This document shows, piece by piece, positions 14,904 to 42,482 of a stretch of 64,000 bases of DNA. The DNA lies in the NCBI RefSeq assembly GCF_003991155.1, contig NZ_CP031293.1. One strand, given 5' to 3'. The notes under the pieces were generated by a model that saw nothing but the letters and a program-made list of their open reading frames with translations, was not told the DNA's origin and did not search any database. Numbering within the stretch: position 1 is the stretch's first letter; the number at the start of each line of letters is the position of its first letter. A program made the position numbers and the translations under genes. The DNA is from Escherichia coli (lineage in GTDB: Bacteria; Pseudomonadota; Gammaproteobacteria; Enterobacterales; Enterobacteriaceae).

Positions 14904-14904
14904 A

Positions 14905-23469: not shown

Positions 23470-23472
23470 CTT

Positions 23473-23927: not shown

Positions 23928-25033
23928 CCGAACCCAATTTTATTGACCGCGATCCTGCGCAAATTACCAGTGAGATGATTGCGCAATACGAAGATGCCAG
24001 TGGTAAAAAACTCTATCCGGCACAGGCTGAGCGGTTGCTCATCGACCTGTTTGCCTATCGTGAAAACCTTGTACGCATCGCCATTCAGGAAGCGGCGAAA
24101 CAAAACCTGGTCGCGTATTCCCGCGCGCCAATGCTGGATTATTTAGGGGAGTTGGTGGGAGTTCACCGTTTGCCTGCGCAGCCTGCAAAAACGACGTTGC
24201 AGTTTTCGGTCGTTAGTGCGTATCCCGGCAATATCCTGATTCCCCAGGGGACGCGGGCCAGTGCCTCTGATAGCGTGATGTTCGCCACCGATGAAGATGT
24301 TCTGCTTCCGGCCAGGAGTTTGCATATCGCCGTTCCTGCCACCAGCCTCGCAGCAGGTGAACAGGGTAACGGCTGGCAGCCTGCACAAATTAGCGCACTG
24401 GTCGACAGGATTGGTCATTATGACATCAACGTAACCAACCTGACTGCGTCAACGGGCGGCTGCGGTGAAGAGAGCGATGACGCATTGCGCCAGCGTATCC
24501 AACTGGCACCAGAAAGCTTTAGTAATGCGGGCAGCTATGGTGCCTACCGCTTTCATACGCTTTCTGTTAGCCAGTCGATTATTGACGTTGCAGTACTGGG
24601 GCCGGACGAGGGATTGCCAGAAGGCTGCGTGGAGATCTACCCGCTAACCCTGAATGGTCTACCCGGCACGGAGTTGCTGGCGCAGATTGAACAAGAAGTC
24701 AGCAAGGAGAAAAAACGACCGCTGACCGACAAAGTGAGTGCGAAATGCGCTCTTCGAGTGCCGTATGAGATCCGTGCGCAGCTAATGCTGTTTACCACCG
24801 CCGATCAGGAGACAACGCTGGCTGCGGCGCGTAAAGCGATTAGCCTCTGGACGCAACAGCGGCAGAAACATCTGGGGCAGGACATTGTGCCAAACCAGAT
24901 AATCAAAGTGTTACAGGTCGATGGCGTCTATGACGTTGCGCTGAATATGCCTACAAAACGTATTTTGCAGGCGCATGAATGGGCGGAATGCACTGCAATA
25001 GACGTCACGATTGCCGGAGTCAGCGATGGATAA
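23918..25033 (+). CDS. Baseplate protein J-like
   Basis: 371-aa ORF after gpW with GGAGG RBS; W-J-I order. Confidence 0.8.
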   Translation: MAIAEPNFIDRDPAQITSEMIAQYEDASGKKLYPAQAERLLIDLFAYRENLVRIAIQEAAKQNLVAYSRAPMLDYLGELVGVHRLPAQPAKTTLQFSVVSAYPGNILIPQGTRASASDSVMFATDEDVLLPARSLHIAVPATSLAAGEQGNGWQPAQISALVDRIGHYDINVTNLTASTGGCGEESDDALRQRIQLAPESFSNAGSYGAYRFHTLSVSQSIIDVAVLGPDEGLPEGCVEIYPLTLNGLPGTELLAQIEQEVSKEKKRPLTDKVSAKCALRVPYEIRAQLMLFTTADQETTLAAARKAISLWTQQRQKHLGQDIVPNQIIKVLQVDGVYDVALNMPTKRILQAHEWAECTAIDVTIAGVSDG

Positions 25034-25742
25034 ATTGCTGCCACCGCCGCCGCTTGCCAGCGATGAGCGTTTTTCGATTCTGGCAAACATCGCCGCCGAG
25101 CGTTTTGCCCAACTCGATCTGACGGCGTTGATGGTTTATCTGGTCGACCTGGTTGATGCTTCGGCATTACCAGCCCTTGCAGAACAATTTCACGTTCAGG
25201 GGCTGGAAGGTTGGTTATTTACCACCGATGAGCGGGAGAAACGCGAGTTAATTAAACAAGCCATTGAACTGCATAAATATAAAGGAACAATTTGGGCGGT
25301 ACGGCGAGTGCTGGAAATACTTTCCTTACCCGGAACTATTTCAGAATGGTTTGAATATGGGGGAAGGGCTTATTTTTTTAAGGTAAATATTACACTAGAG
25401 GAAAAAGGATTAAATGAAGATGAATTCAATGCACTTATCACATTAATTCATGAATATAAAAATGTTCGTTCAAAGCTGGAAAGCATTGTTATTTGGCTTA
25501 TTAATCGAAGCCCAATACCAGTTATTGGCAGCGCCATGCAAGGAGGGGAAGTCATTACAGTATTGCCTCCTGTTGCAGAAAGCCTCAGCCAGTCATCAGG
25601 AATATTTTTAGCGACGGGTTATTGTGTGGAGGAATATATCCAACTACTACCTTATCAACCCGATCGCCTTACACAATCCCAACCGATGAAGGTCGGCACA
25701 GGATACTGGAGCACCGAAATTATGTCTGTATATCCGGAGTAA
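25026..25742 (+). CDS. Tail protein I-like (baseplate)
   Basis: About 238-aa ORF from ATG 25026 overlapping J stop; position before tail fiber. Confidence 0.7.
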
Positions 25743-25744
25743 TA

Positions 25745-27325
25745 ATGGCAAGTGAATTTTTTACAATATTAACTGCTGCAGGCAAAGCCAAAATTGCCTC
25801 AGCACTGGCCGAGCAAAAACAGATCCGTCTGCAAACTATGGTAGTTGGCGACGGTAATGGTAAATATATCGAACCGACAGAAAGTCAGACCAAAGTAGTC
25901 CATGAGGTCTGGCGTGGTCAGCTCAATACATTAAAAATTGCGCCAGATAATCCGGCCTGGGTTATCGCAGAAGCGATTATTCCCGAACAAGTCGGAGGCT
26001 GGTATGTACGCGAAGTTGGGTTACTGGATACCGACGGCACGCTGGTCGCTATTGGTAAATTCCCGGAAACCTATAAGCCACGATTACCTGCGGGGGCCAG
26101 TAAGCAAATCGTTATACGCGCGGTCATGGAAGTCACCAATGCAGACGCGGTGACGCTTTTGATCGACCCTTCAGTCGTTGTGGCAACCAGGGAATATGTC
26201 GATGACGCGTTGAAAACACATCAGCAATCACGAAATCATCCTGATGCGACGCTGACACAAAAAGGTTTTACGCAGCTCAGTAATGCAACTAATAGCGATG
26301 ATGAGACTAAAGCAGCCACGCCAAAAGCGGTAAAAACGGCATATGACCTGGCAAATAGCAAAGCCGCAACCAGTCATACTCATGCCTGGAATCAGATTAC
26401 TGGTATCCCTGACGGTACACTGACGCAGAAAGGAGTCGTTAAACTTAACAACACAACAAATAGCACCAGTACAACGGAAGCTGCAACGCCAAGTGCGGTT
26501 AAAGCAGCGATGGACAAGGCTATTGCTGCGGCGCCGTCCAGCCATACCCATGCCTGGGGGCAAATAACAGGTATCCCCGACGGTACGCTGACACAAAAAG
26601 GGGTCGTGAAACTTAATAATGCGACCAACAGCACCAGTACGACGGAAGCTGCGACGCCGAACGCGGTTAAGGCAGCGATGGATAAGGCTATTGCTGCGGA
26701 AAGCTGTCCTGTTGGGATGCCTATTCCCTGGCCATCTGATTCTGTACCTTCAGGCTACGCTCTGATGACAGGTCAGACATTTAATAAAACCTCCTATCCC
26801 AAACTGGCAATTGCATATCCATCTGGTGTTATTCCTGATATGCGCGGATGGATAATTAAAGGAAAACCATCCAGTGGGCGCGCTATATTATCTACTGAAC
26901 TGGATGGAGTTAAATCACATAACCATACGGGCAGTATTTCGAGTACTGATTTAGGGACGAAAACCACACCCCTCACAGACTTGGGGACTAAAACTGCATC
27001 ATCATTTAACCATGGAAATAAAACAACAAGTTCATCTGGCTCAGGCTCGGCAACTGCAACAGTAAGAACAGGGACATCTTCACCAGAGGGCCAAGGCGAC
27101 TGGACATCATATGGCCCTGGTACCGGATCATCTTTGGCAATTAATGTTCCATCACACGTTCATAGTGTTACAATTGGTTCCCATTCGCACACTGTTGCGC
27201 TCGGCACCCATTCGCATTCAATTGCACTTGGTTCCCATAACCACTCCCTAACCATTAATAATACCGGCAGCACCGAAAACACCGTCAAAAATATCGCATT
27301 CAACTATATTGTGAGGCTAGCATGA
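25745..27325 (+). CDS. Tail fiber protein (P2 gpH-like N-terminal anchor, repeat region, His-x-His tip)
   Basis: N-terminus [23 protein letters not shown]...HEVWRGQLN...[12 protein letters not shown] resembles the conserved P2 H N-terminal domain; three tandem ~45-aa repeats; C-terminal [22 protein letters not shown]. Confidence 0.85.
26244..26700 (+). repeat. Intragenic tandem repeats (three ~135-bp units) within the tail fiber gene
   Basis: Repeated [12 protein letters not shown](A/T)[12 protein letters not shown](S/N)[12 protein letters not shown]...HTHAW(N/G)QITGIPDG seen at DNA and protein level. Confidence 0.7.
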
Positions 27326-28029
27326 ATACTTTTACCTTTTCTGATGAAGCTCAAATACTAACTGTATATAATTTTTCACAAGACTCCCAAGAATATATCG
27401 GTGAGTCTGATGCATACATTGCACCTAATACAGGCTTGCCAAATTATTGCACATTAATTTCACCTCCCGAAAAGGCTCCTGGTTTTACTCCAGTGTGGGA
27501 GAATGAAACATGGAGACTTATTGAAGATCATCGAGGCCAAACTGTTTATAACAAAGTTGATGGTAGCCAGCTTATTATTCAAGAATTGGGCCAATTACCT
27601 GAAAATGTAACAGTCATTTCCCCGACAGGTTCTTTTGAACGTTGGGATGGTGAAAAATGGCAACCATCTATAACCGATGCTAAAGAGGCGAAATACTCTG
27701 CAATCAAAAATCAACGCGATGCCATCACAACCGATTACATCATCATCAACAACCATCACTTCCACAGTGATACAAATAGCCGTATCCAACAGCTTTCACT
27801 CACAAAAATGGGAGCGGAGAAAAAAATTCCGCCAGGGTTAATGTGGAAAACTAAAAATAATGGTCTGATTGAGTTAACCAACGAAATCGCTGCCCAGTTT
27901 GAATCGGTCACCATGGATCACGATATGCGCTTGTTCGCAAACGCCCAGCGTCATATCGCGGCGGTGGAAGCACTGGACGATATTCAGGCGGTGCTCGACT
28001 ACGATTATTCAACAGGCTGGCAACCATGA
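27322..28029 (+). CDS. Tail fiber assembly (chaperone) protein
   Basis: 235-aa ORF overlapping the fiber stop (ATGA); lower GC than surrounding genes, typical of host-range modules. Confidence 0.75.
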
Positions 28030-28481
28030 GTAAAACCACTGTCTGGCTCGCTTGTTATAAGGGCCGAACAGAGCACCGTGGTATTGCCCGACTGGCTGAC
28101 TGGCTTACCCGTAAAATCACACGCGGTAGTTATTCCCACTGTGAATTAGCCGTTAAGCATGGTGAAAAGAGATACCTTTGTTACTCCGCATCACTGCGCG
28201 ATCGCGGTGTACGCGGAAAAATAATGCCATTGCCAGCGGATAAGTGGGATATGCTGCCGCTCCAGGCCAGCCTTCAGGATGTGGAAACTTTTTTCCGTAA
28301 ACATGATGGCAAAAAATATGACTGGCGCGGAGCATTAGGAATTATTATCGGTAATAAAGAACAGCGCGATCGCCTGTTTTGCAGTGAATTTTGTGCTGAA
28401 TTTCTGCAACTGAAGGAAAGCTGGCGCTATTCTCCAAACCACTTGTACGCTTTAGTCAGTAGCTGGCAATATCAGCCGTAA
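28026..28481 (+). CDS. Hypothetical protein (151 aa), Cys/His-containing, translationally coupled to tail fiber assembly gene
   Basis: Intact ORF with ATGA overlap to upstream gene; no confident family assignment. Confidence 0.5.
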   Translation: MSKTTVWLACYKGRTEHRGIARLADWLTRKITRGSYSHCELAVKHGEKRYLCYSASLRDRGVRGKIMPLPADKWDMLPLQASLQDVETFFRKHDGKKYDWRGALGIIIGNKEQRDRLFCSEFCAEFLQLKESWRYSPNHLYALVSSWQYQP

Positions 28482-28495
28482 AATAACGCCGGGCA

Positions 28496-29296
28496 TCACG
28501 CCCGGCGCATTACCGTCTGGTACAGTAAACTATCCAGTTCCTTAACGTCCCCTTCTCTGCTATCCGGTAACACTGGTGGAGTTTCCCCGCGCGCCAGCTC
28601 CGCGCGAATAAACGCATGTAACAAAGGACGACGCGGACCATATTCCGCCTCCCCCGCTCGCTGTTTACGCTCCAGCAGTTCGTCTATTTCTACGCGTAAC
28701 GGCGCATCAAGCTCGCTTCCCGCCAGTAACTCGGAAAAGCGCATTGGCGGCACGCCTTTTCCCGCTTCAACCCAGCGTACGGCCAGCAGCGGACGCAGCA
28801 CGTAAAAGTATTTTTTCAGTCGAACTTCATCGCCCTGCAAATAGCCGCGGAAGTTTTTCTGCGCCATCGAATAGTAATGCCAGCGTGCACGCAACGAAGA
28901 AAACCACATTGGGACCATTGCCTTAAGCGCCGTTATCGTTTCTTCATCTTGTTGATAGACCACCGGAGAATCCAGCCATTCTATCAGCGTCGGATTCGCG
29001 CCTTTCAATAATCCCAGCGCCTTACGCCACTCCCAACCGGAAACATCTAATTCGTCGTCGATGGGCAGCTCGATAACATCGCGCGGTGACTCTACACGCA
29101 GATACCATTCCAGCGGATGGACATACAAAAACCGTACATCGTAGTCGCTATCGGGCGAGGCAAATCCCCAGCCGCGGCTGCCTGATTCGCAGGCGTACAG
29201 CACTTTCACGCCATAGAGACGTTCTATTTCTTTTAACTGCTGCGATACCCGTTCGCGCATCGCAGCACTGACTCCATTTAATGGCATGTTACTCAC
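28496..29296 (-). CDS. Pol-beta-superfamily nucleotidyltransferase-domain protein
   Basis: 266-aa ORF with N-terminal motif ESGSRGWGFASPDSDYDVRF (GS-x9-12-D-x-D nucleotidyltransferase signature); C-terminal ~200 aa unassigned. Confidence 0.7.
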   Translation of the reverse strand: MSNMPLNGVSAAMRERVSQQLKEIERLYGVKVLYACESGSRGWGFASPDSDYDVRFLYVHPLEWYLRVESPRDVIELPIDDELDVSGWEWRKALGLLKGANPTLIEWLDSPVVYQQDEETITALKAMVPMWFSSLRARWHYYSMAQKNFRGYLQGDEVRLKKYFYVLRPLLAVRWVEAGKGVPPMRFSELLAGSELDAPLRVEIDELLERKQRAGEAEYGPRRPLLHAFIRAELARGETPPVLPDSREGDVKELDSLLYQTVMRRA

Positions 29297-30420
29297 CCTT
29301 TGATATTAACCAACCCATGCAGAACCTGATCCAGACCGCCAAATACAGAGATGTTATCGATCCGCTCAGCCACTCTCTCCAGCGTTTCCAGTTCTTTTAA
29401 GCGTAACGCCACCGGGTTGTTTTCCATGACTTTAGCGGTATTGAGTAACGAACGTGTCGCTGCCGTTTCTTCACGCCGACGAATCACATTCGCCTGCGCA
29501 GATTTCTCTGCCTCAACCAGCTGCGCGAGGATATTTTTCATATCACCAGGCAGGACGATATCTTTCACCCCTAATGAGGCAATCTCCATACCAAATGGCA
29601 ACATACGCGATTTAACCTGTTCGCTGACAACGTCATCAATGACCTGTTTATCTTCCAGCAACTCATCCAGCGTACGCGTACCTACCGCTTCACGCAGTGC
29701 AAATTGCAATTCCCGATACAAATGATCAATCGGCTTCGTTAACTGACTAAATGCCAATAACACGTCGCTGTAGCGCCAGTTGGCGGCGAGGTTAATCCGC
29801 AGATTGACCTTATCTTTCGTTAAGATTTCTTGCCCGCTGACTTCCAGTACCTGCAAGCGGGTGTCAACCACTTCAGCTTCAACCAGATGGTTAATTTTCC
29901 AGTACGCAGTCAGCCCCGGCGGTAACAGCGCCTGCGTTTCACCATCGATTTTCAGTACACCTACGTGCCAGGCCGGAACCTGCACCGTCAGTATCGCATC
30001 GCGGCCTTTAACTGCCCCTTTGCGCCGTGGCTGCAATACCGCATTCATCACCTCCGTTTGAACCTGGACTTGCTGCGTATTCATCCGCACCAGCGTCAAA
30101 TCATCCTCTACACGCCAGTACAAACGACGCGTTGATGGCGGCAGGATCTCCAGCAAAATACCGTCCATATACAACGCCCCGGCTTCAGTCTCCGACAAGT
30201 CGGCCACCACGCAATATCTTTCCACCCAATCAGGCTGAAAGCGGCGCAAATAATCCGCCAGCACGTCGGGAACTTCGCTGCCATCGAACGTAATCAGCAA
30301 GACTTCTGGCGTATTTAACCAGGGTAAAAGATGCTCGCCTGCATGCAGCACTTTGTAGTAATCGCCATTTCTGGAGAGTAATGCCAGCTGATCTTTTCTT
30401 ACGCTTATTTTCTTAATCAT
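29293..30420 (-). CDS. SPFH (band-7/stomatin-prohibitin-flotillin) domain protein with ~170-aa N-terminal extension
   Basis: 375-aa ORF; C-terminal half shows SPFH-like region followed by coiled coil (EAEKSAQANVIRRREETAATR...); 4-nt overlap with downstream NTase gene; AGGAA RBS. Confidence 0.75.
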   Translation of the reverse strand: MIKKISVRKDQLALLSRNGDYYKVLHAGEHLLPWLNTPEVLLITFDGSEVPDVLADYLRRFQPDWVERYCVVADLSETEAGALYMDGILLEILPPSTRRLYWRVEDDLTLVRMNTQQVQVQTEVMNAVLQPRRKGAVKGRDAILTVQVPAWHVGVLKIDGETQALLPPGLTAYWKINHLVEAEVVDTRLQVLEVSGQEILTKDKVNLRINLAANWRYSDVLLAFSQLTKPIDHLYRELQFALREAVGTRTLDELLEDKQVIDDVVSEQVKSRMLPFGMEIASLGVKDIVLPGDMKNILAQLVEAEKSAQANVIRRREETAATRSLLNTAKVMENNPVALRLKELETLERVAERIDNISVFGGLDQVLHGLVNIKG

Positions 30421-30948: not shown

Positions 30949-31221
30949 ATGGCACTCCCCCGTATTACCCAAAAAGAGATGACTGAACGCGAGCAGCGTG
31001 AACTTAAAACATTGCTGGATCGGGCGCGGATTGCGCATGGTCGCGTACTGACCAACTCCGAAACCAACAGCATTAAGAAAGAGTACATCGATAAATTAAT
31101 GGTCGAGCGTGAGGCTGAAGCGAAAAAAGCCCGCCAATTGAAGAAAAAGCAGGCTTATAAACCGGATCCTGAGGCGTCATTTAGCTGGTCAGCAAATACG
31201 TCGACGCGCGGCAGGCGCTGA
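30949..31221 (+). CDS. yjbD: YjbD (DUF3811 family small protein)
   Basis: 90-aa ORF MALPRITQKEMTEREQRELKTLLDRARIAHGRVLTNSE... Confidence 0.85.
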   Translation: MALPRITQKEMTEREQRELKTLLDRARIAHGRVLTNSETNSIKKEYIDKLMVEREAEAKKARQLKKKQAYKPDPEASFSWSANTSTRGRR

Positions 31222-32094
31222 TTAACGCCCCTTCTTTTTGCGCCCCGGCGAGGTAAAACGCTTACCGTTGGACGCCGGGCGACCGCCTTTTTCCGCCGTT
31301 TTTTCCATCTTAACGACTGGACGTTTGATGCCTACCGTTTTCGGTTTGGCCTTCGCTTTAGGTTTTGCCTCGGAAGAGGAATTTTCGATGAGCCTAAAGA
31401 GGTCGATTAACTCATCGTCGGTTAAATCGCGCCACTCCCCCAGCGGAATGCCGCTTAAGCTGACGTTCATAATGCGCGTACGTTCCAGCTTTTTCACTTC
31501 GTAACCAAAGTGCTCGCACATGCGACGGATCTGACGGTTCAGCCCCTGCACCAGGGTAATGCGGAAGACAAACGGCGCTTCTTTTTTGACTTTGCACTTT
31601 TTCGTCACCGTCCCGAGGATCGGCACTCCCGCCCCCATACCACGAATAAATTCATCGGTAATCGGTTTATCAACCGTCACCAGATACTCTTTCTCATGAT
31701 CGTTACCCGCACGGAGGATCTTATTCACCAGATCGCCGTGATTGGTGAGGAAAATCAGCCCCTGGGAGTCTTTATCCAGGCGGCCAATCGGGAACACGCG
31801 TTTGCTGTGGTTAACGAAATCGACAATGTTATCGCGCTCGCCATCTTCGGTGGTGCTGACAATACCGACGGGCTTGTTCAGGGCGATAAGTACCAAATCT
31901 TCGGCTTCCCGAGGCTCAATCAACTGACCATTTACTTTCACAACGTCGCCGGGTTTCACCTGATCGCCAATGGTGGCTCGCTTGCCATTAAGGAACACAT
32001 TGCCTTGCTCGATATAGCGATCCGCTTCGCGGCGTGAGCAAATTCCGCTTTCGCTGATGTATTTATTTAAACGGACTGATGAGTCGGGCAGCAT
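31222..32094 (-). CDS. rluF: 23S rRNA pseudouridine synthase F
   Basis: 290-aa ORF with S4 domain N-terminus ([26 protein letters not shown]) and RluA/RsuA-type catalytic core; basic C-terminal tail. Confidence 0.93.
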
Positions 32095-32441
32095 AAATTC
32101 TCCTGTAAAACGCGGAATATACCGTACCTCTTAGCGGGGAAAAACAGGGTTATGCGGCAACGTCGAAATTAAATGTGATCTGCCACGCCTTTTATCACAA
32201 AAGTGTCTCCGGAAGTACGATGCAAATTTGCCTGGCAAAATAAGGATAATCAACATATTACGAATCGCTGCACACCTGTGCTGATGACTACTACGCAGAG
32301 AAACAAATGTGCAAGAGAAAGCGCTATTTCTCCCCATGCAAAGAGTGAAAAATCGCTTTGAAAGGCCATCATGATGGGGTTATATCAGATCAAGCGGTGA
32401 GAAAGCGTATTTGCACAAATGTGCAGAACCAGGAGGCGGCA

Positions 32442-33389
32442 ATGGAAAACAGTGACGATATCCGTTTGATTGTGAAGATTGCCCAACTCTATTACGAACA
32501 GGATATGACGCAGGCGCAAATCGCGTGCGAACTGGGTATTTACCGCACCACCATCAGCCGCTTGCTTAAACGAGGCCGCGATCAGGGAATTGTCACCATC
32601 GCCATCAACTATGACTACAACGAAAATCTCTGGCTGGAGCAGCAACTGAAGCAAAAGTTTGGCCTGAAAGACGTTGTGGTGGTGTCGGGAAATGATGAGG
32701 ATGAAGAGACTCAACTGGCGATGATGGGGTTACACGGCGCGCAACTGCTGGATCGCTTGCTGGAGCCTGGCGATATTGTCGGTTTTTCCTGGGGTCGCGC
32801 GGTGAGCGCACTGGTTGAAAACTTGCCGCAGGCGGGGCAATCGCGGCAGTTAATCTGCATACCAATTATTGGCGGCCCGTCCGGTAAACTCGAAAGCCGC
32901 TATCATGTAAACACATTAACCTACAGCGCGGCAGCGAAGTTGAAAGGGGAATCGCATCTCGCGGATTTTCCGGCTCTACTGGATAACCCCTTAATTCGTA
33001 ATGGGATCATGCAGTCTCAGCACTTTAAAACCATCTCTGCCTACTGGGATAATCTGGATGTCGCCCTGGTGGGAATTGGCTCACCGGCCATTCGCGACGG
33101 CGCTAACTGGCATGCGTTTTATGGTGGTGAAGAGAGTGACGACCTGAATGCCCGCCAGGTTGCTGGCGATATTTGCTCGCGCTTTTTTGATATTCACGGC
33201 GCAATGGTTGAAACGAATATGAGCGAAAAAACACTCTCTATCGAAATGAATAAATTAAAGCAGGCACGATATTCCATTGGCATTGCCATGAGTGAAGAAA
33301 AATACAGCGGAATTGTTGGTGCACTGCGTGGAAAATATATTAATTGTCTGGTAACGAATAGCAGCACAGCTGAACTATTACTGAAATAA
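32442..33389 (+). CDS. sorC: SorC-family transcriptional regulator of the L-sorbose operon
   Basis: Translation from internal start MENSDDIRLIVKIAQLYYEQDMTQAQIACELGIYRTTISRLLKRG (HTH) followed by sugar-binding domain; first gene of sor cluster. Confidence 0.85.
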   Translation: MENSDDIRLIVKIAQLYYEQDMTQAQIACELGIYRTTISRLLKRGRDQGIVTIAINYDYNENLWLEQQLKQKFGLKDVVVVSGNDEDEETQLAMMGLHGAQLLDRLLEPGDIVGFSWGRAVSALVENLPQAGQSRQLICIPIIGGPSGKLESRYHVNTLTYSAAAKLKGESHLADFPALLDNPLIRNGIMQSQHFKTISAYWDNLDVALVGIGSPAIRDGANWHAFYGGEESDDLNARQVAGDICSRFFDIHGAMVETNMSEKTLSIEMNKLKQARYSIGIAMSEEKYSGIVGALRGKYINCLVTNSSTAELLLK

Positions 33390-33458
33390 AAATCTTCCCG
33401 ATGTTTACCGTAATAAAAATTACGGCGGGTCCCTATTATCTAAAATCAGGAGTCTGTT

Positions 33459-34265
33459 ATGCAAACGTGGTTAAATTTGCAGAATAAAATCATTATTGTC
33501 ACCGGTGGCGCATCCGGCATTGGTCTGGCGATTGTGGATGAATTATTAGCACAAGGCGCGAATGTACAGATGGTCGATATTCACGGTGGCGATGGACAAT
33601 ATGAAGGTCATAAAGGCTATCAGTTTTGGCCGACCGATATTTCCAGCGCCAAAGAGGTAAATCATACGGTAGCAGAAATTATCCAGCGTTTTGGTCGCAT
33701 CGACGGTCTGGTCAATAACGCCGGGGTCAATTTTCCGCGTCTGCTGGTCGATGAGAAAGCGCCTGCCGGGCAGTATGAACTCAACGAAGCGGCATTCGAA
33801 AAAATGGTCAATATCAACCAGAAAGGCGTTTTTCTGATGTCGCAGGCGGTGGCGCGACAGATGGTCAAACAACATGATGGCGTGATTGTGAATGTTTCCT
33901 CAGAAAGTGGGCTGGAAGGCTCAGAAGGCCAAAGCTGTTACGCCGCGACCAAAGCCGCGCTCAATAGCTTCACGCGCTCCTGGTCGAAAGAGCTGGGTAA
34001 GCACGGTATCCGTGTGGTCGGTATCGCGCCGGGGATTCTGGAAAAAACAGGACTGCGCACGCCGGAATATGAAGAAGCGCTGGCTTGGACGCGCAATATC
34101 ACCGTCGAGCAGCTGCGTGAAGGCTATACCAAAAACGCCATTCCTATTGGGCGCGCCGGAAGATTAGCAGAAGTGGCTGATTTTGTTTGTTATCTGCTGT
34201 CTGAACGCGCCAGCTATATCACCGGAGTAACCACTAACATTGCGGGCGGCAAAACGCGCGGCTAA
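33459..34265 (+). CDS. sorD: Short-chain dehydrogenase (D-glucitol-6-phosphate dehydrogenase SorD-like)
   Basis: 268-aa SDR with TGGASGIG Rossmann motif; operon position. Confidence 0.8.
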   Translation: MQTWLNLQNKIIIVTGGASGIGLAIVDELLAQGANVQMVDIHGGDGQYEGHKGYQFWPTDISSAKEVNHTVAEIIQRFGRIDGLVNNAGVNFPRLLVDEKAPAGQYELNEAAFEKMVNINQKGVFLMSQAVARQMVKQHDGVIVNVSSESGLEGSEGQSCYAATKAALNSFTRSWSKELGKHGIRVVGIAPGILEKTGLRTPEYEEALAWTRNITVEQLREGYTKNAIPIGRAGRLAEVADFVCYLLSERASYITGVTTNIAGGKTRG

Positions 34266-34274
34266 GGAGGCTTT

Positions 34275-34682
34275 ATGGTCAATGCCATTTTTTGCGCCCA
34301 CGGCAAATTAGCCTGCGCCATGCTGGAATCGGTTCAGATGGTGTACGGCGATGCCAGGGTCGAGGCAGTTGAATTTGTGCCCGGCGAGAACGCCGGAGAC
34401 ATTGTGGCAAAGCTGGAGAAGTTAGTGAGCATTCACAATCATGACGAGTGGCTAATCGCCGTGGATTTACAGTGCGGCAGCCCGTGGAATGCGGCAGCGG
34501 TGCTTGCGATGCGCAATCCTCGTCTGCGGGTAATCAGCGGCCTTTCACTGCCGCTGGCGCTCGAACTGGTTGATAACCAGGACAGCATGAATGTTGATGA
34601 ACTGTGTGAACACCTGACGCAAATCGCAAAGCAATCCTGCGTCGTCTGGAGACAGGTGGCAACGGCAGAGGAGGATTTCTGA
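34275..34682 (+). CDS. sorF: PTS sorbose-family EIIA component
   Basis: 135-aa ORF with mannose-family EIIA N-terminus (AIFCAHGKLA); operon position. Confidence 0.8.
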   Translation: MVNAIFCAHGKLACAMLESVQMVYGDARVEAVEFVPGENAGDIVAKLEKLVSIHNHDEWLIAVDLQCGSPWNAAAVLAMRNPRLRVISGLSLPLALELVDNQDSMNVDELCEHLTQIAKQSCVVWRQVATAEEDF

Positions 34683-35176
34683 TGAACATTACGCTCGCCC
34701 GCATTGATGACCGCCTGATCCACGGTCAGGTCACTACCGTCTGGTCGAAAGTGGCTAACGCCCAGCGCATTATTATCTGCAATGACGAAGTTTATAACGA
34801 TGAAGTTCGCCGGACATTATTGCGTCAGGCTGCGCCACCGGGAATGAAGGTTAACGTGGTCAATATTGAAAAAGCCGTCGCGGTTTATCACAACCCGCAA
34901 TATCAGGACGAAACCGTTTTTTATCTTTTCACTCGCCCACAGGATGCCTTAGCGATGGTTCGCCAGGGGGTAAAAATAGGTACCCTGAATATTGGCGGTA
35001 TGGCCTGGCGTCCTGGTAAAAAACAGTTAACCAAAGCAGTTTCATTAGATGACGATGATATTAACGCATTTCATGAGTTAAATAATCTTGGCGTCATACT
35101 GGATTTACGCGTCGTAGCGTCAGATCCCTCAATCAATATTATCGACAAAATAAACGAACAGTTAATCGCAAATTAA
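34682..35176 (+). CDS. sorB: PTS sorbose-family EIIB component
   Basis: 164-aa ORF MNITLARIDDRLIHGQVTTVWSK (mannose-family EIIB motif). Confidence 0.85.
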   Translation: MNITLARIDDRLIHGQVTTVWSKVANAQRIIICNDEVYNDEVRRTLLRQAAPPGMKVNVVNIEKAVAVYHNPQYQDETVFYLFTRPQDALAMVRQGVKIGTLNIGGMAWRPGKKQLTKAVSLDDDDINAFHELNNLGVILDLRVVASDPSINIIDKINEQLIAN

Positions 35177-35241
35177 ATAATAGCGCCTGTGTACATATGC
35201 TTTAACAGGCAGGGATGACGACACTTAAAAGGTGACAAATC

Positions 35242-36039
35242 ATGGAAATAAGTACCCTACAAATTATTGCTATATTTCTTTTTTCCTGTATTGCCGGAAT
35301 GGGCAGCGTGCTGGATGAATTTCAGACTCATCGTCCGTTAATTGCCTGTACGGTGATTGGTTTAATTCTCGGTGATTTAAAAACCGGAATTATGCTCGGT
35401 GGTACGCTGGAATTGATAGCTCTCGGCTGGATGAACGTCGGCGCGGCGCAATCTCCGGATTCTGCACTCGCCAGCATAATCTCCGCCATTCTGGTTATCG
35501 TTGGTCAGCAAAGCATCGCCACCGGAATCGCCATCGCGTTGCCTGTGGCTGCGGCAGGCCAGGTGCTAACGGTGTTTGCCCGTACCATCACCGTAGTGTT
35601 CCAGCACGCGGCGGATAAAGCAGCGGAAGAAGCACGGTTTCGCACTCTCGATATTCTGCATGTCTCCGCGCTTGGCGTGCAGGCACTGCGCGTTGCTATT
35701 CCGGCACTGATTGTCTCGCTGTTCGTCAGCGCCGATATGGTGAGCAATATGCTGAGCGCCATTCCCGAATTTGTGACCCGTGGACTGCAGATTGCTGGCG
35801 GTTTTATCGTGGTGGTCGGTTACGCCATGGTGCTTCGCATGATGGGCGTGAAATATTTGATGCCTTTCTTTTTCCTCGGTTTCCTCGCAGGTGGCTACCT
35901 CGATCTCAGTCTGCTGGCGTTCGGTGGCGTCGGCGTGATCATGGCCCTGCTCTACATCCAGTTAAATCCACAGTGGCGTAAAGCTGAACCACATCCCCAG
36001 ACCACCACTATCACCGCCCTTGACCAACTTGATGATTAA
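35242..36039 (+). CDS. sorA: PTS sorbose-family EIIC component
   Basis: 265-aa polytopic membrane ORF. Confidence 0.85.
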   Translation: MEISTLQIIAIFLFSCIAGMGSVLDEFQTHRPLIACTVIGLILGDLKTGIMLGGTLELIALGWMNVGAAQSPDSALASIISAILVIVGQQSIATGIAIALPVAAAGQVLTVFARTITVVFQHAADKAAEEARFRTLDILHVSALGVQALRVAIPALIVSLFVSADMVSNMLSAIPEFVTRGLQIAGGFIVVVGYAMVLRMMGVKYLMPFFFLGFLAGGYLDLSLLAFGGVGVIMALLYIQLNPQWRKAEPHPQTTTITALDQLDD

Positions 36040-36049
36040 CGGAGCCATC

Positions 36050-36874
36050 ATGGAACAGAGAAAAATTACACGCAGCGATCTGGTGAGCATGTTTCTGCGC
36101 TCCAACCTGCAACAGGCATCCTTTAACTTTGAACGTATTCACGGGCTGGGTTTTTGCTACGACATGATCCCCGCCATCAAACGACTTTACCCATTAAAAG
36201 AGGATCAGGTTGCGGCGCTCAGGCGACACCTGGTGTTCTTCAATACCACGCCAGCCGTATGTGGCCCGGTCATCGGCGTCACTGCCGCCATGGAAGAGGC
36301 GCGAGCCAACGGCGCGGAAATTGATGACGGTACCATTAACGGCATCAAAGTAGGTCTGATGGGACCATTGGCAGGAGTTGGCGATCCACTGGTCTGGGGA
36401 ACGCTGCGCCCGATTACCGCCGCGCTCGGCGCATCTCTGGCACTTTCGGGCAACATTCTCGGCCCCCTGCTGTTCTTCTTTATTTTCAATGCAGTACGTC
36501 TGGCAATGAAATGGTATGGGCTGCAACTGGGCTTTCGTAAAGGGGTGAATATCGTCAGCGATATGGGCGGTAATTTGCTGCAAAAACTGACCGAAGGCGC
36601 GTCGATTCTCGGGCTGTTTGTAATGGGCGTACTGGTGACCAAATGGACATCGATCAACGTGCCGTTAGTGGTTTCACAAACGCCTGCCGCCGATGGTGCC
36701 ACCGTCACTATGACCGTACAGAACATTCTCGACCAGCTTTGCCCTGGATTGCTGGCGCTCGGTTTGACGCTGCTGATGGTACGTCTGCTCAACAAAAAAA
36801 TTAACCCGGTATGGCTGATTTTCGCCCTGTTTGGTTTAGGGATTATCGGTAATGCGCTGGGCTTCCTGTCCTGA
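36050..36874 (+). CDS. sorM: PTS sorbose-family EIID component
   Basis: Membrane ORF from ATG 36050 (GGAG RBS), 274 aa; typical EIID. Confidence 0.85.
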   Translation: MEQRKITRSDLVSMFLRSNLQQASFNFERIHGLGFCYDMIPAIKRLYPLKEDQVAALRRHLVFFNTTPAVCGPVIGVTAAMEEARANGAEIDDGTINGIKVGLMGPLAGVGDPLVWGTLRPITAALGASLALSGNILGPLLFFFIFNAVRLAMKWYGLQLGFRKGVNIVSDMGGNLLQKLTEGASILGLFVMGVLVTKWTSINVPLVVSQTPAADGATVTMTVQNILDQLCPGLLALGLTLLMVRLLNKKINPVWLIFALFGLGIIGNALGFLS

Positions 36875-36925
36875 TTCTTCGCCCCGGCGCAACCGTCGGG
36901 GCCATCGTTCAACATGAGGTGGTTT

Positions 36926-38155
36926 ATGAAAACAACAGCTCTGCGTCTTTATGGTAAACGTGATTTACGCCTGGAAACCTTTGACCTTCCTGAAATGCAG
37001 GAGGATGAAATCCTCGCAACGGTGGTCACTGACAGCCTGTGCCTCTCTTCCTGGAAAGAGGCCAATCTGGGGGAAAACCATAAAAAAGTACCCGACGATG
37101 TGGCGACCAATCCCATCATCATCGGCCACGAATTTTGCGGCGATATTCTGGCCGTGGGTAAAAAGTGGCAGCACAAATTCCAGCCGGGTCAGCGTTATGT
37201 GATTCAGGCCAACCTGCAACTCCCCGACCGCCCGGACTGCCCCGGCTACTCCTTCCCGTGGGTAGGCGGCGAAGCGACGCATGTGGTTATTCCCAACGAG
37301 GTCATGGAACAAGATTGCCTGCTGGCATACGACGGCGAAACCTATTTTGAAGGCTCGCTGGTTGAACCGCTTTCCTGCGTGATTGGCGCGTTCAACGCCA
37401 ACTATCATCTTCAGGAAGGTAGTTATAACCACACGATGGGGATTCGCCCGCAAGGGCGCACGCTGATCCTCGGCGGCACCGGACCAATGGGACTGTTGGC
37501 GATTGATTATGCGCTACATGGACCCGTTAACCCTTCGCTGCTCGTCATTACCGATACCGACAACGACAAATTGAGTTATGCGCGCAAGCACTATCCATCA
37601 GAACCGCAAACACTGATTCATTATCTCAATGCCACCGATGCAGCATTTGATACGTTAATGGCGCTGAGTGGCGGTCACGGCTTCGATGATATTTTCGTCT
37701 TTGTGCCTAATGAAGGACTGGTGACTCTCGCCTCTTCCTTGCTGGCGACAGATGGTTGCCTGAATTTCTTCGCCGGACCGCAGGATAAGCACTTCAGCGC
37801 GCCAATTAATTTCTACGATGTGCATTATGCATTTACCCACTACGTAGGCACGTCAGGCGGCAATACCGACGACATGCGCGCAGCGGTCAAATTGATTGAA
37901 GAGAAAAAAGTGCAGGCCGCAAAAGTGGTAACACATATTCTTGGGCTGAATGCCGCGGGCGAAACCACGCTTGAATTGCCTGCCGTCGGCGGCGGGAAAA
38001 AACTGGTGTATACCGGGAAATATCTGCCGCTGACATCACTCACGCAGATTCAGGATGAAGAACTGGCGGCGATTCTGGCGCGTCATCAGGGAGTCTGGTC
38101 CGGCGAGGCGGAGCAGTACCTGCTCGCCCATGCAGAGGCGATTTCCCATGATTAA
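36926..38155 (+). CDS. sorE: Zinc-type alcohol dehydrogenase family, L-sorbose-1-phosphate reductase-like
   Basis: 409-aa ORF from MKTTALRLYGKRDLRLETFDLPE...; MDR/ADH family features; operon position. Confidence 0.8.
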   Translation: MKTTALRLYGKRDLRLETFDLPEMQEDEILATVVTDSLCLSSWKEANLGENHKKVPDDVATNPIIIGHEFCGDILAVGKKWQHKFQPGQRYVIQANLQLPDRPDCPGYSFPWVGGEATHVVIPNEVMEQDCLLAYDGETYFEGSLVEPLSCVIGAFNANYHLQEGSYNHTMGIRPQGRTLILGGTGPMGLLAIDYALHGPVNPSLLVITDTDNDKLSYARKHYPSEPQTLIHYLNATDAAFDTLMALSGGHGFDDIFVFVPNEGLVTLASSLLATDGCLNFFAGPQDKHFSAPINFYDVHYAFTHYVGTSGGNTDDMRAAVKLIEEKKVQAAKVVTHILGLNAAGETTLELPAVGGGKKLVYTGKYLPLTSLTQIQDEELAAILARHQGVWSGEAEQYLLAHAEAISHD

Positions 38156-38960
38156 TCGCGATACTCAACTCTGCATGTCGCTGGCCGGCTGCCCCGGTAA
38201 CTTCGGCACGCGTTTTCACAATTATCTTTATGAAAAGCTGGGGCTGAATTTCATCTATAAAGCGTTCACCACCCAGGATATTGCAGCGGCGGTGAAAGGG
38301 GTTCGCGCGTTGGGTATTCGCGGTTGCGCTGTGTCGATGCCGTTTAAAGAAAGCTGCATGCCTTTTCTCGACGCGATCGATCCGTCGGCGAAGGTCATTG
38401 ATTCCGTGAATACCATCGTGAATGACGACGGCAGGCTGACCGGGTTTAACACCGACTATATCGCGGTGAAAAGCCTGATTACCCACCACCAGCTCAATAC
38501 CACCACGCGAGTGATGATTCGCGGCAGTGGCGGCATGGGCAAAGCGGTGATTGCCGCCTTTCGCGACGCGGGGTTTACGGATGTTATCATTGCCGCCCGC
38601 AACCGCGAGAGCGGCCCGGCGCTGGCGAAGCAGTATGGGTTTCAGTGGCAACCGCAGCCGGAAGGCATCGCCTGCGACATTCTGGTCAACGTGACGCCCG
38701 TTGGCATGAGCGGCGGTAAAGAGAGCCATGAGCTGGCCTTCAGCGAAGCGATGGTCTCAACGGCAAGCGTCGTTTTTGATGTCGTGGCCTTGCCGCCGGA
38801 AACGCCGCTCATTCGCCTGGCGCAACGGCTTGATAAGCAGACGATTAGCGGTGCGGAGGTGATTGCTTTACAGGCCGTCGAGCAGTTCGCAATGTATACC
38901 GGCGTACGGCCTGATGCGCAACTGATTGCTGAGGCGGCACAATTTGCACGAGAAGGATAA
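38148..38960 (+). CDS. Shikimate 5-dehydrogenase-like protein (AroE/YdiB family paralog)
   Basis: About 270-aa ORF from MINRDTQLCMSLAG...; motifs VSMPFKES and NTDY match the AroE family (VTVPFKEE, NTDG); start overlaps sorE stop by 8 nt. Confidence 0.75.
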   Translation: MINRDTQLCMSLAGCPGNFGTRFHNYLYEKLGLNFIYKAFTTQDIAAAVKGVRALGIRGCAVSMPFKESCMPFLDAIDPSAKVIDSVNTIVNDDGRLTGFNTDYIAVKSLITHHQLNTTTRVMIRGSGGMGKAVIAAFRDAGFTDVIIAARNRESGPALAKQYGFQWQPQPEGIACDILVNVTPVGMSGGKESHELAFSEAMVSTASVVFDVVALPPETPLIRLAQRLDKQTISGAEVIALQAVEQFAMYTGVRPDAQLIAEAAQFAREG

Positions 38961-39082
38961 GAAACATCAGCGCCTTGTTTGCCACGCCAGAAGCAATGCG
39001 CAACATCGTGAGCCATGTCAGTAAGCGGTTAAAATCACAGTGGTAGCATGGCTCCCGTGATTTCTTACTAACCGGAGAAGTA

Positions 39083-39772
39083 ATGGAACTGCTTTTATTG
39101 AGTAACTCGACGCTGCCGGGTAAAGCCTGGCTGGAACACGCGCTGCCGCTGATTGCTGAACAGTTGCAGGGTCGCCGTTCAGCGGTATTTATTCCTTTCG
39201 CTGGCGTAACGCAGACCTGGGATGATTACACAGCGAAAACGGCTGCGGTTCTCGCTCCGCTGGGTGTTTCTGTCACCGGTATTCATAGCGTTGTCGATCC
39301 CGTTGCCGCGATTGAAAATGCTGAGATCGTGATTGTCGGCGGCGGGAATACTTTCCAGTTGCTGAAACAGTGCCGCGAGCGCGGGCTGCTGGCACCAATT
39401 ACTGACGTGGTGAAACGTGGCGCGCTGTATATTGGCTGGAGCGCAGGCGCTAACCTTGCTTGCCCAACCATTCGTACCACCAACGATATGCCGATTGTCG
39501 ATCCGCAAGGTTTCGATGCGCTGAATCTGTTCCCGTTGCAAATCAACCCGCACTTCACCAACGCGCTGCCGGAAGGCCATAAAGGTGAAACGCGTGAGCA
39601 GCGTATTCGCGAACTGCTGGTCGTCGCGCCAGAACTCACAATTATTGGTCTACCGGAAGGTAACTGGATCACGGTGAGTAAAGGTCACGCTACGCTGGGT
39701 GGCCCGAACACCACTTATGTGTTTAAGGCTGGTGAAGAAGCGGTGCCGCTGGAAGCGGGTCACCGTTTTTAA
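39083..39772 (+). CDS. pepE: Peptidase E (alpha-aspartyl dipeptidase)
   Basis: 229-aa [33 protein letters not shown]... Confidence 0.95.
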
Positions 39773-39779
39773 GTGAATT

Positions 39780-39860
39780 GCCGGATGCATAATCCGGCAT
39801 CTTGTTCATCGTGCCTGATGCGACGCTTTACGCGTCTTATCAGGCCTACAGGGTCACGGT
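39780..39860. repeat. REP-like palindromic elements between convergent pepE and yjbB
   Basis: GCCGGATGCATAATCCGGC and CTGATGCGACGC...GCGTCTTATCAGGCCTAC motifs. Confidence 0.6.
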
Positions 39861-39861
39861 A

Positions 39862-41493
39862 TTAATACTCGTCCCGTCCTTCGTCTTCATCCGGCTGTTC
39901 CAGCACACTGTAAGCCACCGAACAAAACAGCGAGTTCAGACGCTGCATATCTCCCAGTAAGCCTAAATGTAGCGAACTGGTTTCAATGCTTTGCACGTTT
40001 TGCTGATGCAGGCGATCGACGTGAGCATGGGAATAACGGCGATTAAGAATGCGAAAGCGATGCTTGCTGCGGCGCAAACGACGGGCGCTGGTAACATCGC
40101 CAGAGAAGAAAACCGACATTGCCAGTTTTAAATTACTGAGCAATTGCTCATAGAGCGCATCCAGTTCCTTCAAGCCATCAAGCGAAAATGCCCGCCGTGC
40201 TGCCAGCGATTTATCGGCAATTTCGCTCCCCATGCGCTCGACGATATCGGAGGCCTGTTCAAGGTTGAGCGACATTTCGATGATCTCCGCCCAGCGGCGC
40301 GACTCTTCCTCCGCCAGCTCTTCTTTTGGCATCCGCGCCAGATACAGCTTAATGGCGGTATAGAGAACGTTGATATCATCTGCCAGCTTACGCAGCTCTT
40401 TCTCCTGCCGTGGCTCGCCGTGCATCACTTTATTCAGCCCTTCCATCATCTGTTCCATGGCGTCGCCAATGCGCAGGGTTTCGCGCGCGGCGTTCGCCAG
40501 AGCAAGCGTGGGCGTATCCAGCGCGCTGACATCCAGATGTTTGGGTCGTAGCTGGGTATCCAGTTCCGGTTCATCGCGAATAATCGTTTTGCAAAACCGT
40601 GCCATCGGGTCAACAAATGGCAGCATGACCAGGCAGCGTACAAGGTTGTAGAAGACGTGGAAATAGATCACCAGTTCCGCTTTTGGCAGTGGCAACTTCC
40701 CCATTGTCTCTGCCAGCAAATGGACAAACGGCAGGATAATCAGGCTACCCACCAGCTTAAACAGCAGGCTACCCAGCGCGACACGGCGGGCTGCGGCATT
40801 GGCGGCACTGTTGTTGAGCATCGCCAGCAGACCGGAACCGAGGTTAGCACCAATCACCAGACAGAGCGCCACGGGGAAGGAGATAATGCCTGCGGCGGTC
40901 AGAGTCGCGGTCAGCAGTACAGCAGCAAGGCTGGAGTAGCTGATAATGGCGAACATCGCGCCAATCAGCGCATCCAGCAGAATATCGCCGGTCAGCGAGG
41001 CAAAGATCACCTGAACGCCGTTTGCCTGGGTGATCGGCGTTACGGCCTGCACAATCAACTCCAGCGCCAGCAAAATCAGCCCAAGACCAATACCGACGCG
41101 GCCCAGTTGCCCGGCGCGTGACTGTTTGCGTCCGAGGAAAAAAATCACGCCGATAAAAATAAGTAACGGTGACAGCCAGGATAAGTCGAAGGTGAGAATA
41201 CGCGCCATTAGCGCCGTCCCGACATCTGCACCCAGCACAATCACCAGAGCCGGTGCGAGGGCTACCAGATCCTGAGCGACAAACGAGGTCACCAGCATGG
41301 TGGTGGCATTACTGCTCTGCACCAGTGCGGTAACGCCTATCCCCGCGCAAAAGGCGAGCGGCTTCTTTTCGACGCTTCGGCTAAGAACAGTACGCAGACG
41401 CGCGCCGAAGACGCGCATTACGCCGGTTCGAACAATATGAGTCCCCCAGACCAGCAGGGCGACGGCAGAAAGCAGGTGAAGCAAAGTTAGCAC
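39862..41493 (-). CDS. yjbB: Na+/phosphate symporter family protein YjbB
   Basis: 543-aa polytopic ORF MLTLLHLLSAVALLVWGTHIVRTGVMRVFG... with C-terminal PhoU-like region. Confidence 0.93.
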   Translation of the reverse strand: MLTLLHLLSAVALLVWGTHIVRTGVMRVFGARLRTVLSRSVEKKPLAFCAGIGVTALVQSSNATTMLVTSFVAQDLVALAPALVIVLGADVGTALMARILTFDLSWLSPLLIFIGVIFFLGRKQSRAGQLGRVGIGLGLILLALELIVQAVTPITQANGVQVIFASLTGDILLDALIGAMFAIISYSSLAAVLLTATLTAAGIISFPVALCLVIGANLGSGLLAMLNNSAANAAARRVALGSLLFKLVGSLIILPFVHLLAETMGKLPLPKAELVIYFHVFYNLVRCLVMLPFVDPMARFCKTIIRDEPELDTQLRPKHLDVSALDTPTLALANAARETLRIGDAMEQMMEGLNKVMHGEPRQEKELRKLADDINVLYTAIKLYLARMPKEELAEEESRRWAEIIEMSLNLEQASDIVERMGSEIADKSLAARRAFSLDGLKELDALYEQLLSNLKLAMSVFFSGDVTSARRLRRSKHRFRILNRRYSHAHVDRLHQQNVQSIETSSLHLGLLGDMQRLNSLFCSVAYSVLEQPDEDEGRDEY

Positions 41494-41663: not shown

Positions 41664-42113
41664 TCACACTTTCCCCTGTCGTTTACACCAGATAATCGTT
41701 GTCACTTTTGTGACCTCTGAGAAGATAAACAACGAAATATTTAAGACCAGATCCTGTGAATGAAAATAATTAAGTAACAACGGTATTACGGAGATTGAAC
41801 AGCTTACGGTAGCAAAACGCATAAACTCCTGAATCGCCAAAAAAGAGAAACTAAATAATTCTTGTCTTAAAAAACATTGCGCAGAAAAGAATAAAGAGAA
41901 CAATAATACTATTTGTAGCGTAACAGTGGCGACTGCATAAGCGTAAAAACCGCCTTCAACACCGATATCCTTAAGTAAAGAAAGTGAATGAACGATATCG
42001 GAATAAAAAGGGATACGACCATTACCAAGCGAGTAGAACAAATATGTGGCTATCGCGATAACATCCATGACACCCCAAAAAAGAAGAATGTATTTTTTAT
42101 ATTGACGTTGCAT
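41664..42113 (-). CDS. Hypothetical small membrane protein (about 4 predicted TM helices), AT-rich
   Basis: 149-aa ORF in a ~30% GC islet; hydrophobic segments; no family recognised. Confidence 0.5.
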   Translation of the reverse strand: MQRQYKKYILLFWGVMDVIAIATYLFYSLGNGRIPFYSDIVHSLSLLKDIGVEGGFYAYAVATVTLQIVLLFSLFFSAQCFLRQELFSFSFLAIQEFMRFATVSCSISVIPLLLNYFHSQDLVLNISLFIFSEVTKVTTIIWCKRQGKV

Positions 42114-42155
42114 AAAGTAAATCCTTTTTACGAAAACAAATATTACCAGGAATTA

Positions 42156-42482
42156 TTATAATTGCGGGCGTTTTTGGATTAACACTCCACCCGTATTTTT
42201 AAAAATCCTGTCAGCCATACCTTCACTAAACAAGACATCGATACGCCCTTTACTTTTATCGTGATACAGAATACTGCATGAGATACACCTTATACCCTCT
42301 TTGGATTTACGAAAATCTAACCAAAAACGACCATCATAAAAGACCCACTCCACACCTGTTTTTATATTAATTATCCAATCATTATAACCTGTTGGTTTTT
42401 TTCCTAATAGTTCAGTAACTTCGGACTCTGAACATCCTTCGAAAGCAAAAAAATCTATTTCATCGATTTTTATCATGTTCAA
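42156..42482 (-). CDS. Hypothetical small soluble protein (108 aa), AT-rich
   Basis: 108-aa ORF immediately upstream (same strand) of the membrane ORF; atypical codon usage. Confidence 0.5.
   Translation of the reverse strand: MNMIKIDEIDFFAFEGCSESEVTELLGKKPTGYNDWIINIKTGVEWVFYDGRFWLDFRKSKEGIRCISCSILYHDKSKGRIDVLFSEGMADRIFKNTGGVLIQKRPQL

Follow-up and report, generated by a model that had tools for sequence, protein, structure and literature searches.

An eight-gene L-sorbose operon in Escherichia coli with an SdhL-class dehydrogenase gene at its end

The L-sorbose operon sorCDFBAME was reportedly described by Wehmeier and Lengeler in the 1990s in Klebsiella pneumoniae and Escherichia coli, and in E. 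coli it is said to map near metH. Here we analyse such an operon in a 64,000-nucleotide stretch of E. coli DNA (contig NZ_CP031293.1; hereafter the window), in which the seven textbook genes are followed by an eighth, sdhL, encoding a protein of the shikimate dehydrogenase family. The locus resembles the textbook one in its seven genes and their order, in the four-subunit mannose-family enzyme II (EII) of its phosphotransferase system (PTS), in the dehydrogenases SorE and SorD, in the regulator SorC, and in the yjbB and metH neighbourhood by pepE. It differs at the far end, as the textbook operon stops at sorE whereas the window and Klebsiella genomes have sdhL as an eighth cistron overlapping the sorE stop. 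In our reading, this block is very probably the chromosomal L-sorbose PTS operon of Enterobacteriaceae with all eight genes of its ancestral state, sorC-D-F-B-A-M-E-sdhL, with SdhL as an accessory product.

Two other described systems bear directly on the eighth gene. The SdhL class is represented by Haemophilus influenzae HI0607, whose structure was solved in 2003-2005 and from which very low shikimate activity, dependent on nicotinamide adenine dinucleotide phosphate (NADP), and no quinate activity have been ascribed to the class. A literature search on SdhL alongside AroE and YdiB found nothing. An sdhL gene adjoining sor had been noted earlier in E. coli of sequence type 648 (ST648), where it was annotated as HI_0607-like (Swiatek et al. 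2025, mSystems, PMC12817954). It is the same gene by the same operon, and there it responds to L-sorbose at both the RNA and the protein level, with log2 fold changes of +6.01 for RNA (about 64-fold) and +6.77 for protein that match those of sorA, sorF, sorB and sorE (PMC12817954, supplementary table). In ST131 and ST648 strains that share this sor operon, experiments have shown that L-sorbose induces sor and supports growth; ST131, which is without sdhL, grows on L-sorbose minimal medium (PMC12817954). Our account departs from that one in two respects. The paper puts sdhL 'immediately upstream', whereas in the window the gene follows the 3′ end of sorE in the same orientation; and it describes an ST648-specific insertion, whereas the comparative data and a deletion scar in other strains point to an ancestral state, the opposite polarity. 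Already known, then, were the textbook operon, the RefSeq annotation of the eighth gene and the published sorbose induction; what we add is the SdhL class assignment, the co-conservation across genera, the deletion scar shared by most E. coli and a sorC-sdhL module in Kluyvera.

The operon and the class of its last product

Open reading frame (ORF) lists and profile searches place eight closely packed, same-strand ORFs within window positions 32095-39082, between rluF and pepE, exactly where an earlier note made from the letters alone had located them. The genes themselves, sorC-sorD-sorF-sorB-sorA-sorM-sorE and the AroE-family gene, span 32442-38960. E. coli strain 2016C-3878 matches the window at 100% identity, and its RefSeq annotation has the same eight genes under names that include sorE and 'shikimate 5-dehydrogenase'. 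EIIA, EIIB, EIIC and EIID are four separate subunits, each scoring above its curated cut-off. A contig from the K. pneumoniae complex has a sor gene order identical to that of the window, and alignment to Klebsiella Sor proteins, a check suggested in the earlier note, revealed orthology throughout, with tblastn identities of 71% for SorF, 86% for SorE, 87% for SorC and SorB, 88% for SorD, 93% for SorA and 96% for SorM. By its one-strand order and this orthology the block is a Klebsiella-type sorCDFBAME L-sorbose PTS operon, as the earlier note had proposed. In the described route, SorFBAM takes up L-sorbose as L-sorbose-1-phosphate, SorE converts this to D-glucitol-6-phosphate and SorD yields fructose-6-phosphate, with SorC as the regulator of the operon (PMC13410766). 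The seven sor genes cover this whole pathway, with no step missing. A lesion in one of them was seen in E. coli LR-64-1, whose sorA (EIIC; L086:4117-4914) has an internal stop and bears a pseudogene annotation, while the rest of the operon is complete.

On sequence grounds we assign the eighth gene to the SdhL class, as its product exceeds the cut-off of the class profile NF009202, is closest to HI0607 (PDB 1NPY), and has the Lys/Asp dyad and an NADP-type Rossmann motif. The two proteins are of equal length and about 75% identical, collinear over residues 1-268 (374 bits, E = 2.5e-111), and share the Lys67/Asp103 pair and the nucleotide-binding motif GSGGM...ARN; the next-best PDB match reaches 116 bits. 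With AroE and YdiB, SdhL shares the two-domain fold family PF08501 plus PF01488, but its matches to the E. coli structures of those enzymes score just 55-95 bits. Among 15 aligned SdhL sequences, the window protein included, K67, D103, N88, Q242, R151 and Arg22 are invariant, as is G126-S-G-G-M130. Pocket residues were placed by alignment to Methanocaldococcus jannaschii AroE (1NVT), which sets HSFSP against GNFGT and IYNP against VALP. In E. coli AroE, Ser14, Ser16 and Tyr215 are the ligands of the shikimate carboxylate; the corresponding SdhL residues are Asn18, Gly20 and Ala214, invariant across the class. A true AroE was considered and rejected, as SdhL scores 164.1 bits against the aroE equivalog TIGR00507, below the cut-off of 200.2, and these ligands are replaced. 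Because Lys67 and Asp103 are kept while the three carboxylate-holding residues are replaced, SdhL would be expected to oxidize or reduce a secondary alcohol or ketone of a substrate other than shikimate, probably with NADP(H). The poor shikimate activity reported for HI0607 fits the replacement of the AroE ligands.

The 8-nucleotide overlap of the sdhL start with the sorE stop that the earlier note had reported is exact: sorE ends CAT GAT TAA at 38155 and sdhL begins ATG ATT AAT at 38148, with ATGATTAA common to both. The same overlap occurs in 23 of 38 enterobacterial species representatives and in the separately retrieved K. pneumoniae-complex locus; in eight Citrobacter the two genes are separated by a 1-nucleotide spacer, TAACATG. 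A consensus promoter scan of the block gave three promoter-like matches, none at sorE/sdhL and the count below chance, and terminator-like matches inside sorE and sdhL were weak and no commoner than in shuffled sequence. No signal divides sdhL from sorE: the genes overlap without a spacer, and scan matches are at or below shuffled expectation. We therefore read sdhL as what would be the last cistron of the sorbose-inducible sor transcript, probably coupled to sorE in translation through the overlap. The rluF-sorC intergenic region is, by its position, the presumed site of the sor promoter and the SorC operator; the consensus promoter scan gave nothing above chance in this region.

Conservation across genera and loss within E. 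coli

The eighth gene is widespread. One genome per species was scanned, which yielded 80 sdhL loci onto which the window proteins were mapped. Full sorCDFBAME-sdhL arrays were found in Pseudocitrobacter, Citrobacter, Klebsiella, Raoultella, Enterobacter spp., a Serratia strain and Entomohabitans, and within Escherichia in E. whittamii, E. albertii, a further species and a divergent E. coli-like genome, nearly always between rluF and pepE. At that site sdhL directly follows sorE in about 30 species representatives from about ten genera; of 38 enterobacterial loci, 37 have an intact sdhL ORF. Against the window allele, dN/dS (the ratio of nonsynonymous to synonymous substitution rates) is 0.05-0.09 for sdhL and 0.03-0.06 for sorE, values that place both genes under comparable purifying selection. 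The exact window SdhL sequence is present on 522 contigs and the exact K. pneumoniae-complex SdhL on at least 1000, so the 'textbook' organism has sdhL too; only these exact-sequence counts are used, as the cluster retrieved for window SdhL is headed by SorE sequences (409 amino acids), probably a look-up artefact of the overlapping genes. The earlier note had called the eighth gene 'extra', which holds relative to textbooks and most E. coli but fails across genera, where the gene is co-conserved with sorE, K. pneumoniae complex included. Absence from most sor loci, which that note had named as grounds for doubt, is likewise true of E. coli, and is contradicted by the presence of sdhL in essentially all sampled sor loci of other Enterobacteriaceae genera.

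Individual loci vary in detail. In E. albertii NBRC 107761 (L009) and Escherichia sp. MOD1-EC7003 (L006) the sorE frame is apparently broken (253 amino acids, and 12 amino acids before a stop) and the downstream sdhL is intact at 270 amino acids; unless this reflects sequencing error, sdhL outlives sorE there. The distance between sdhL and pepE spans roughly 1-9 kb in Citrobacter spp. (L010-L017) and K. spallanzanii (L020), so further genes have been inserted between the two in several species. The K. pneumoniae-complex locus (L088) is missing pepE, and its sdhL abuts yjbB.

Several taxa retain sdhL with little or nothing of the operon. Six Kluyvera species have rluF, an intact and collinear SorC orthologue (70% identical), sdhL and pepE, and no PTS or dehydrogenase genes; within-genus dN/dS is 0.05-0.08 for their sorC and 0.10-0.13 for their sdhL, so that both are still under purifying selection. 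Pluralibacter has kept sdhL alone. Whereas the window gene closes a sorbose-inducible PTS operon, the Pasteurellaceae gene, HI0607 included, stands after secB-gpsA-cysE, a housekeeping context with no sor or other sugar genes, and in Pseudomonas, Lautropia, Pantoea, Ewingella and Enterobacillus sdhL is found in unrelated and variable neighbourhoods. Because Kluyvera keeps only sorC-sdhL and Pasteurellaceae have sdhL without sor, the function of SdhL is unlikely to be specific to sorbose. A search for a conserved operon partner outside Enterobacteriaceae gave no functional clue in the neighbourhoods examined. The sor-like cluster of Yersinia is without both sorD and sdhL. In Serratia silvae, sdhL is at a non-sor locus by exbD and is preceded, at a distance of about 200 bp, by a truncated SorC-like ORF (L078:9051-9788; sugar-binding domain only, no helix-turn-helix (HTH), 55% identical); the pair may be a decayed sorC-sdhL module.

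Within E. coli the block is strain-variable, as the earlier note had it: among 5426 complete genomes, 2865 have sor and just 176 have sdhL, all of whose copies are at least 99% identical. This rarity and near-identity of sdhL, together with the absence of the block from K-12-like genomes and the ST648-specific insertion described by Swiatek et al. (PMC12817954), would favour a recent, lineage-specific horizontal insertion of the sor-sdhL block or of sdhL alone. Against this, the strains without sdhL, about 94% of E. coli sor loci, retain traces of it. All five that were examined (CFT073, O157:H7, DA33135, LR-64-1 and SB0258h1) carry one identical two-ended scar after sorE, which consists of sdhL nucleotides 1-58 with CAA changed to TAA at codon 7, approximately the last 39 nucleotides of the gene, and the sequence 3′ of its stop. 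As the identical scar recurs in five diverse sor-positive strains, the seven-gene operon of E. coli would be a derived state, and the sequences indicate a single ancient internal deletion that removed sdhL in most sor-positive E. coli. Just after the sdhL remnant the scar also has an insert of about 180 bp that resembles a repetitive extragenic palindromic (REP) or bacterial interspersed mosaic element (BIME) and has no counterpart in the window. This element, at L001:8610-8790 in CFT073 and at equivalent positions in L084-L087, reads GCCGGATGCGG...CCTTATTCGGCCTAC...GGTAGGCC...GCGCATCAGGC.

The alleles themselves tell a similar story. The sor genes of the window, the 3′ half of sorE included, are 96-99% identical to those of other E. 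coli and 90-95% identical to those of other Escherichia species, and window sdhL is about 91% identical to its counterparts in other Escherichia species. Another Escherichia or Pseudocitrobacter was considered as a recent donor of sdhL and rejected, as the per-gene identities show no drop at the 3′ end of sorE. That the window alleles are typical of E. coli up to the junction argues against recent import, and the window lineage appears to keep the ancestral intact sdhL allele.

For the block as a whole, the evidence also runs against recent arrival. Its GC content (0.43-0.60) is centred on host values; no integrase or mobility genes are annotated within it, although no search for transfer RNA genes was made; and a repeat search for island boundaries returned only short chance matches. 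In mobility genes, boundary repeats and base composition, the sor-sdhL block lacks the hallmarks of a genomic island. Swiatek et al. give the share of genomes with sor as above 86% in all phylogroups other than A and B1 (PMC12817954). Because the same site is occupied, in the same gene order, in many genera, island hallmarks are lacking and absence falls mainly in A and B1, loss in K-12-like lineages is likelier than gain, and 'inserted', the word used in the earlier note, probably has the direction wrong. That note had correctly placed rluF and pepE next to each other in K-12: in a K-12-like genome they are 211 bp apart, with no sor genes between them. Homology of this spacer to the window stops 35 bp past the rluF start codon and restarts 96 bp before pepE, and in between about 80 bp of unrelated filler, which matches nothing in the sor block, replaces window 32130-38985.

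Competing explanations for the eighth gene

Taken together, we favour a history in which the cluster would be old at rluF/pepE, K-12-like E. coli would have lost the whole block, and most other E. coli would have lost sdhL only, through one ancient internal deletion that spared the window lineage. SdhL would be an accessory oxidoreductase rather than a step of sorbose catabolism; the growth of ST131 on sorbose without it marks sdhL as a dispensable accessory cistron. Several points weigh against this picture. First, the single deletion is drawn from five genomes studied in detail and a uniform 91% coverage pattern among the matches listed. Second, ancestral presence at rluF/pepE rests on synteny, and the K-12 site cannot prove deletion over never having gained the block, because a search of the roughly 80-bp filler found no sor remnants. 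Third, translational coupling is inferred from the sorE/sdhL overlap alone. Finally, the only biochemical data for the class, reportedly from Singh et al. in 2005, are said to show that HI0607 oxidizes shikimate weakly with NADP.

The link of sdhL to SorC and sor may be the first physiological clue to the SdhL class. One reading of that clue, which we regard as doubtful, is that SdhL proteins are NADPH-dependent keto-sugar or cyclitol reductases under the control of the sugar-sensing SorC and not enzymes of the shikimate pathway, with 5-keto-D-fructose or a related 2,5-diketo or hexulose compound as candidate substrates, for example.

An unlikely alternative to the accessory role is that SdhL widens the input of the sor regulon by interconverting a sorbose-related keto-sugar or polyol that feeds the SorE/SorD route, for example through NADPH reduction of 5-keto-D-fructose to L-sorbose or D-fructose, or through action on a phosphorylated hexulose. 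The co-induction of sdhL with sor by L-sorbose (PMC12817954) would suit such a role, as would the linkage of sdhL to sorE or the SorC regulator across genera, including the Kluyvera sorC-sdhL pair under purifying selection, and a pocket in which the carboxylate ligands are replaced and Arg22 is invariant in the substrate loop. Specific NADPH-dependent 5-ketofructose reductases that belong to the shikimate dehydrogenase family are known from Tatumella and Gluconobacter, and reduction of 5-ketofructose can yield L-sorbose (PMC7954740). These enzymes share the fold family with SdhL and act on keto-hexoses linked to L-sorbose, but the similarity of SdhL to the Gluconobacter enzyme (PDB 7COK) is remote (63 bits, E = 2e-16) and no closer than to AroE. 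Furthermore, the characterized family members make D-fructose, not L-sorbose, and one tested homologue was inactive on 5-ketofructose (PMC7954740). Pasteurellaceae, Pseudomonas and Lautropia, in which sor is absent, have orthologues at 65-68% identity (75% for HI0607) that keep the invariant pocket residues and have no sugar genes beside them, and most E. coli dropped sdhL but kept sor. The earlier note's suggestion that the gene acts on a sorbose-pathway intermediate finds no support either, as the pathway is complete without SdhL, strains lacking sdhL grow on sorbose and orthologues exist in taxa without sor.

It is quite unlikely that SdhL is instead a spare, low-activity AroE paralogue that aids aromatic amino-acid biosynthesis or shikimate use when sor is on. 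The family assignment and the RefSeq name point that way, as does the slow NADP+-dependent shikimate oxidation that Singh et al. are said to have seen with HI0607 in 2005. The same is true of the rise of aroL and trp genes with sorbose, but that rise also occurs in ST131, which lacks sdhL (PMC12817954). E. coli already has aroE and ydiB, and both the score below the TIGR00507 cut-off and the class-wide replacement of Ser14, Ser16 and Tyr215 argue against AroE function. Recent horizontal insertion, the last alternative, is very unlikely and, for sdhL, is largely refuted by the scar.

Surroundings of the block and wider meaning

Coordinates of the operon, its junction and its flanks are collected in Table 1. 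Both flanking genes are conserved, and yjbB and metH adjoin pepE in the window. An Rfam scan of window 31000-40000 gave no match.

Table 1. Features of the sor-sdhL locus in window coordinates
Feature	Position	Strand	Evidence
rluF, conserved left flank	31222..32094	-	NF007784 RluF, 605 bits; RefSeq rluF
rluF-sorC intergenic region	32095..32441	+	99% conserved among sor-positive E. coli
Strain-variable segment	32130..38985	.	K-12-like rluF-pepE spacer aligned locally to the window
sorC, SorC/DeoR-type sugar-binding transcriptional regulator	32442..33389	+	PF04198 Sugar-bind, 270 bits; N-terminal HTH; RefSeq CDS (coding sequence) boundaries
sorD, D-glucitol-6-phosphate dehydrogenase of the short-chain dehydrogenase/reductase (SDR) type	33459..34265	+	NF004817 'sorbitol-6-phosphate dehydrogenase subunit', 500 bits, cut-off 304
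sorF, PTS EIIA (mannose family)	34275..34682	+	TIGR00824, 145 bits
sorB, PTS EIIB (sorbose subfamily)	34682..35176	+	TIGR00854, 223 bits; PF03830
sorA, PTS EIIC	35242..36039	+	TIGR00822 EII-Sor, 422 bits
sorM, PTS EIID	36050..36874	+	TIGR00828, 473 bits
sorE, L-sorbose-1-phosphate reductase, zinc alcohol dehydrogenase fold	36926..38155	+	PF08240 and PF00107; RefSeq sorE, 'L-sorbose 1-phosphate reductase'
8-nt overlap ATGATTAA, sdhL start codon inside the last sorE codons and stop	38148..38155	+	Read directly from the sequence
sdhL, SdhL-class (HI0607-like) NADP(H)-type dehydrogenase, shikimate dehydrogenase family, putative eighth cistron	38148..38960	+	NF009202, 464 bits, cut-off 306
Part of sdhL deleted in most sor-positive E. 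coli (approximate limits)	38206..38921	+	sorE-pepE spacers of five strains without sdhL
sdhL-pepE spacer	38961..39082	+	Final 96 bp common to all E. coli
pepE, conserved right flank	39083..39772	+	NF003642 PepE, 357 bits

Other strain-specific features lie further out. A myovirus-type prophage with sheath, tube, baseplate and tail-fibre genes, and a tape-measure gene annotated as a pseudogene, fills window positions of about 14000-30420 (NZ_CP029747.1 4919775-4936000) and sits in what is the lysC-yjbD junction of CFT073 and K-12. Its end adjoining yjbD bears two cargo genes, for a 'slipin family protein' (29293-30420, minus strand) and a nucleotidyltransferase-domain protein, a pair that might act in phage-borne defence or as morons. 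On the other side, yjbB and metH have between them, at 41664-42480, two small hypothetical ORFs whose GC content is very low (about 0.34) and which form a separate small strain-variable insertion.

Recent work has promoted the sor operon as a marker of fitness and virulence in high-risk lineages of E. coli (PMC12817954, PMC13410766), and the true ancestral gene content of sor matters for how such lineage comparisons are read. If our account is right, the sdhL of ST648 would be the original state and not a lineage-specific gain, and it is ST131, CFT073, O157 and others that would carry a shared pseudogene scar. For experiments on SdhL, a class whose structure has been solved, the locus would also be an inexpensive point of entry through two natural, isogenic-like contrasts: sdhL intact or deleted behind one and the same sorbose-inducible promoter, and the Kluyvera module that consists of sorC and sdhL only.

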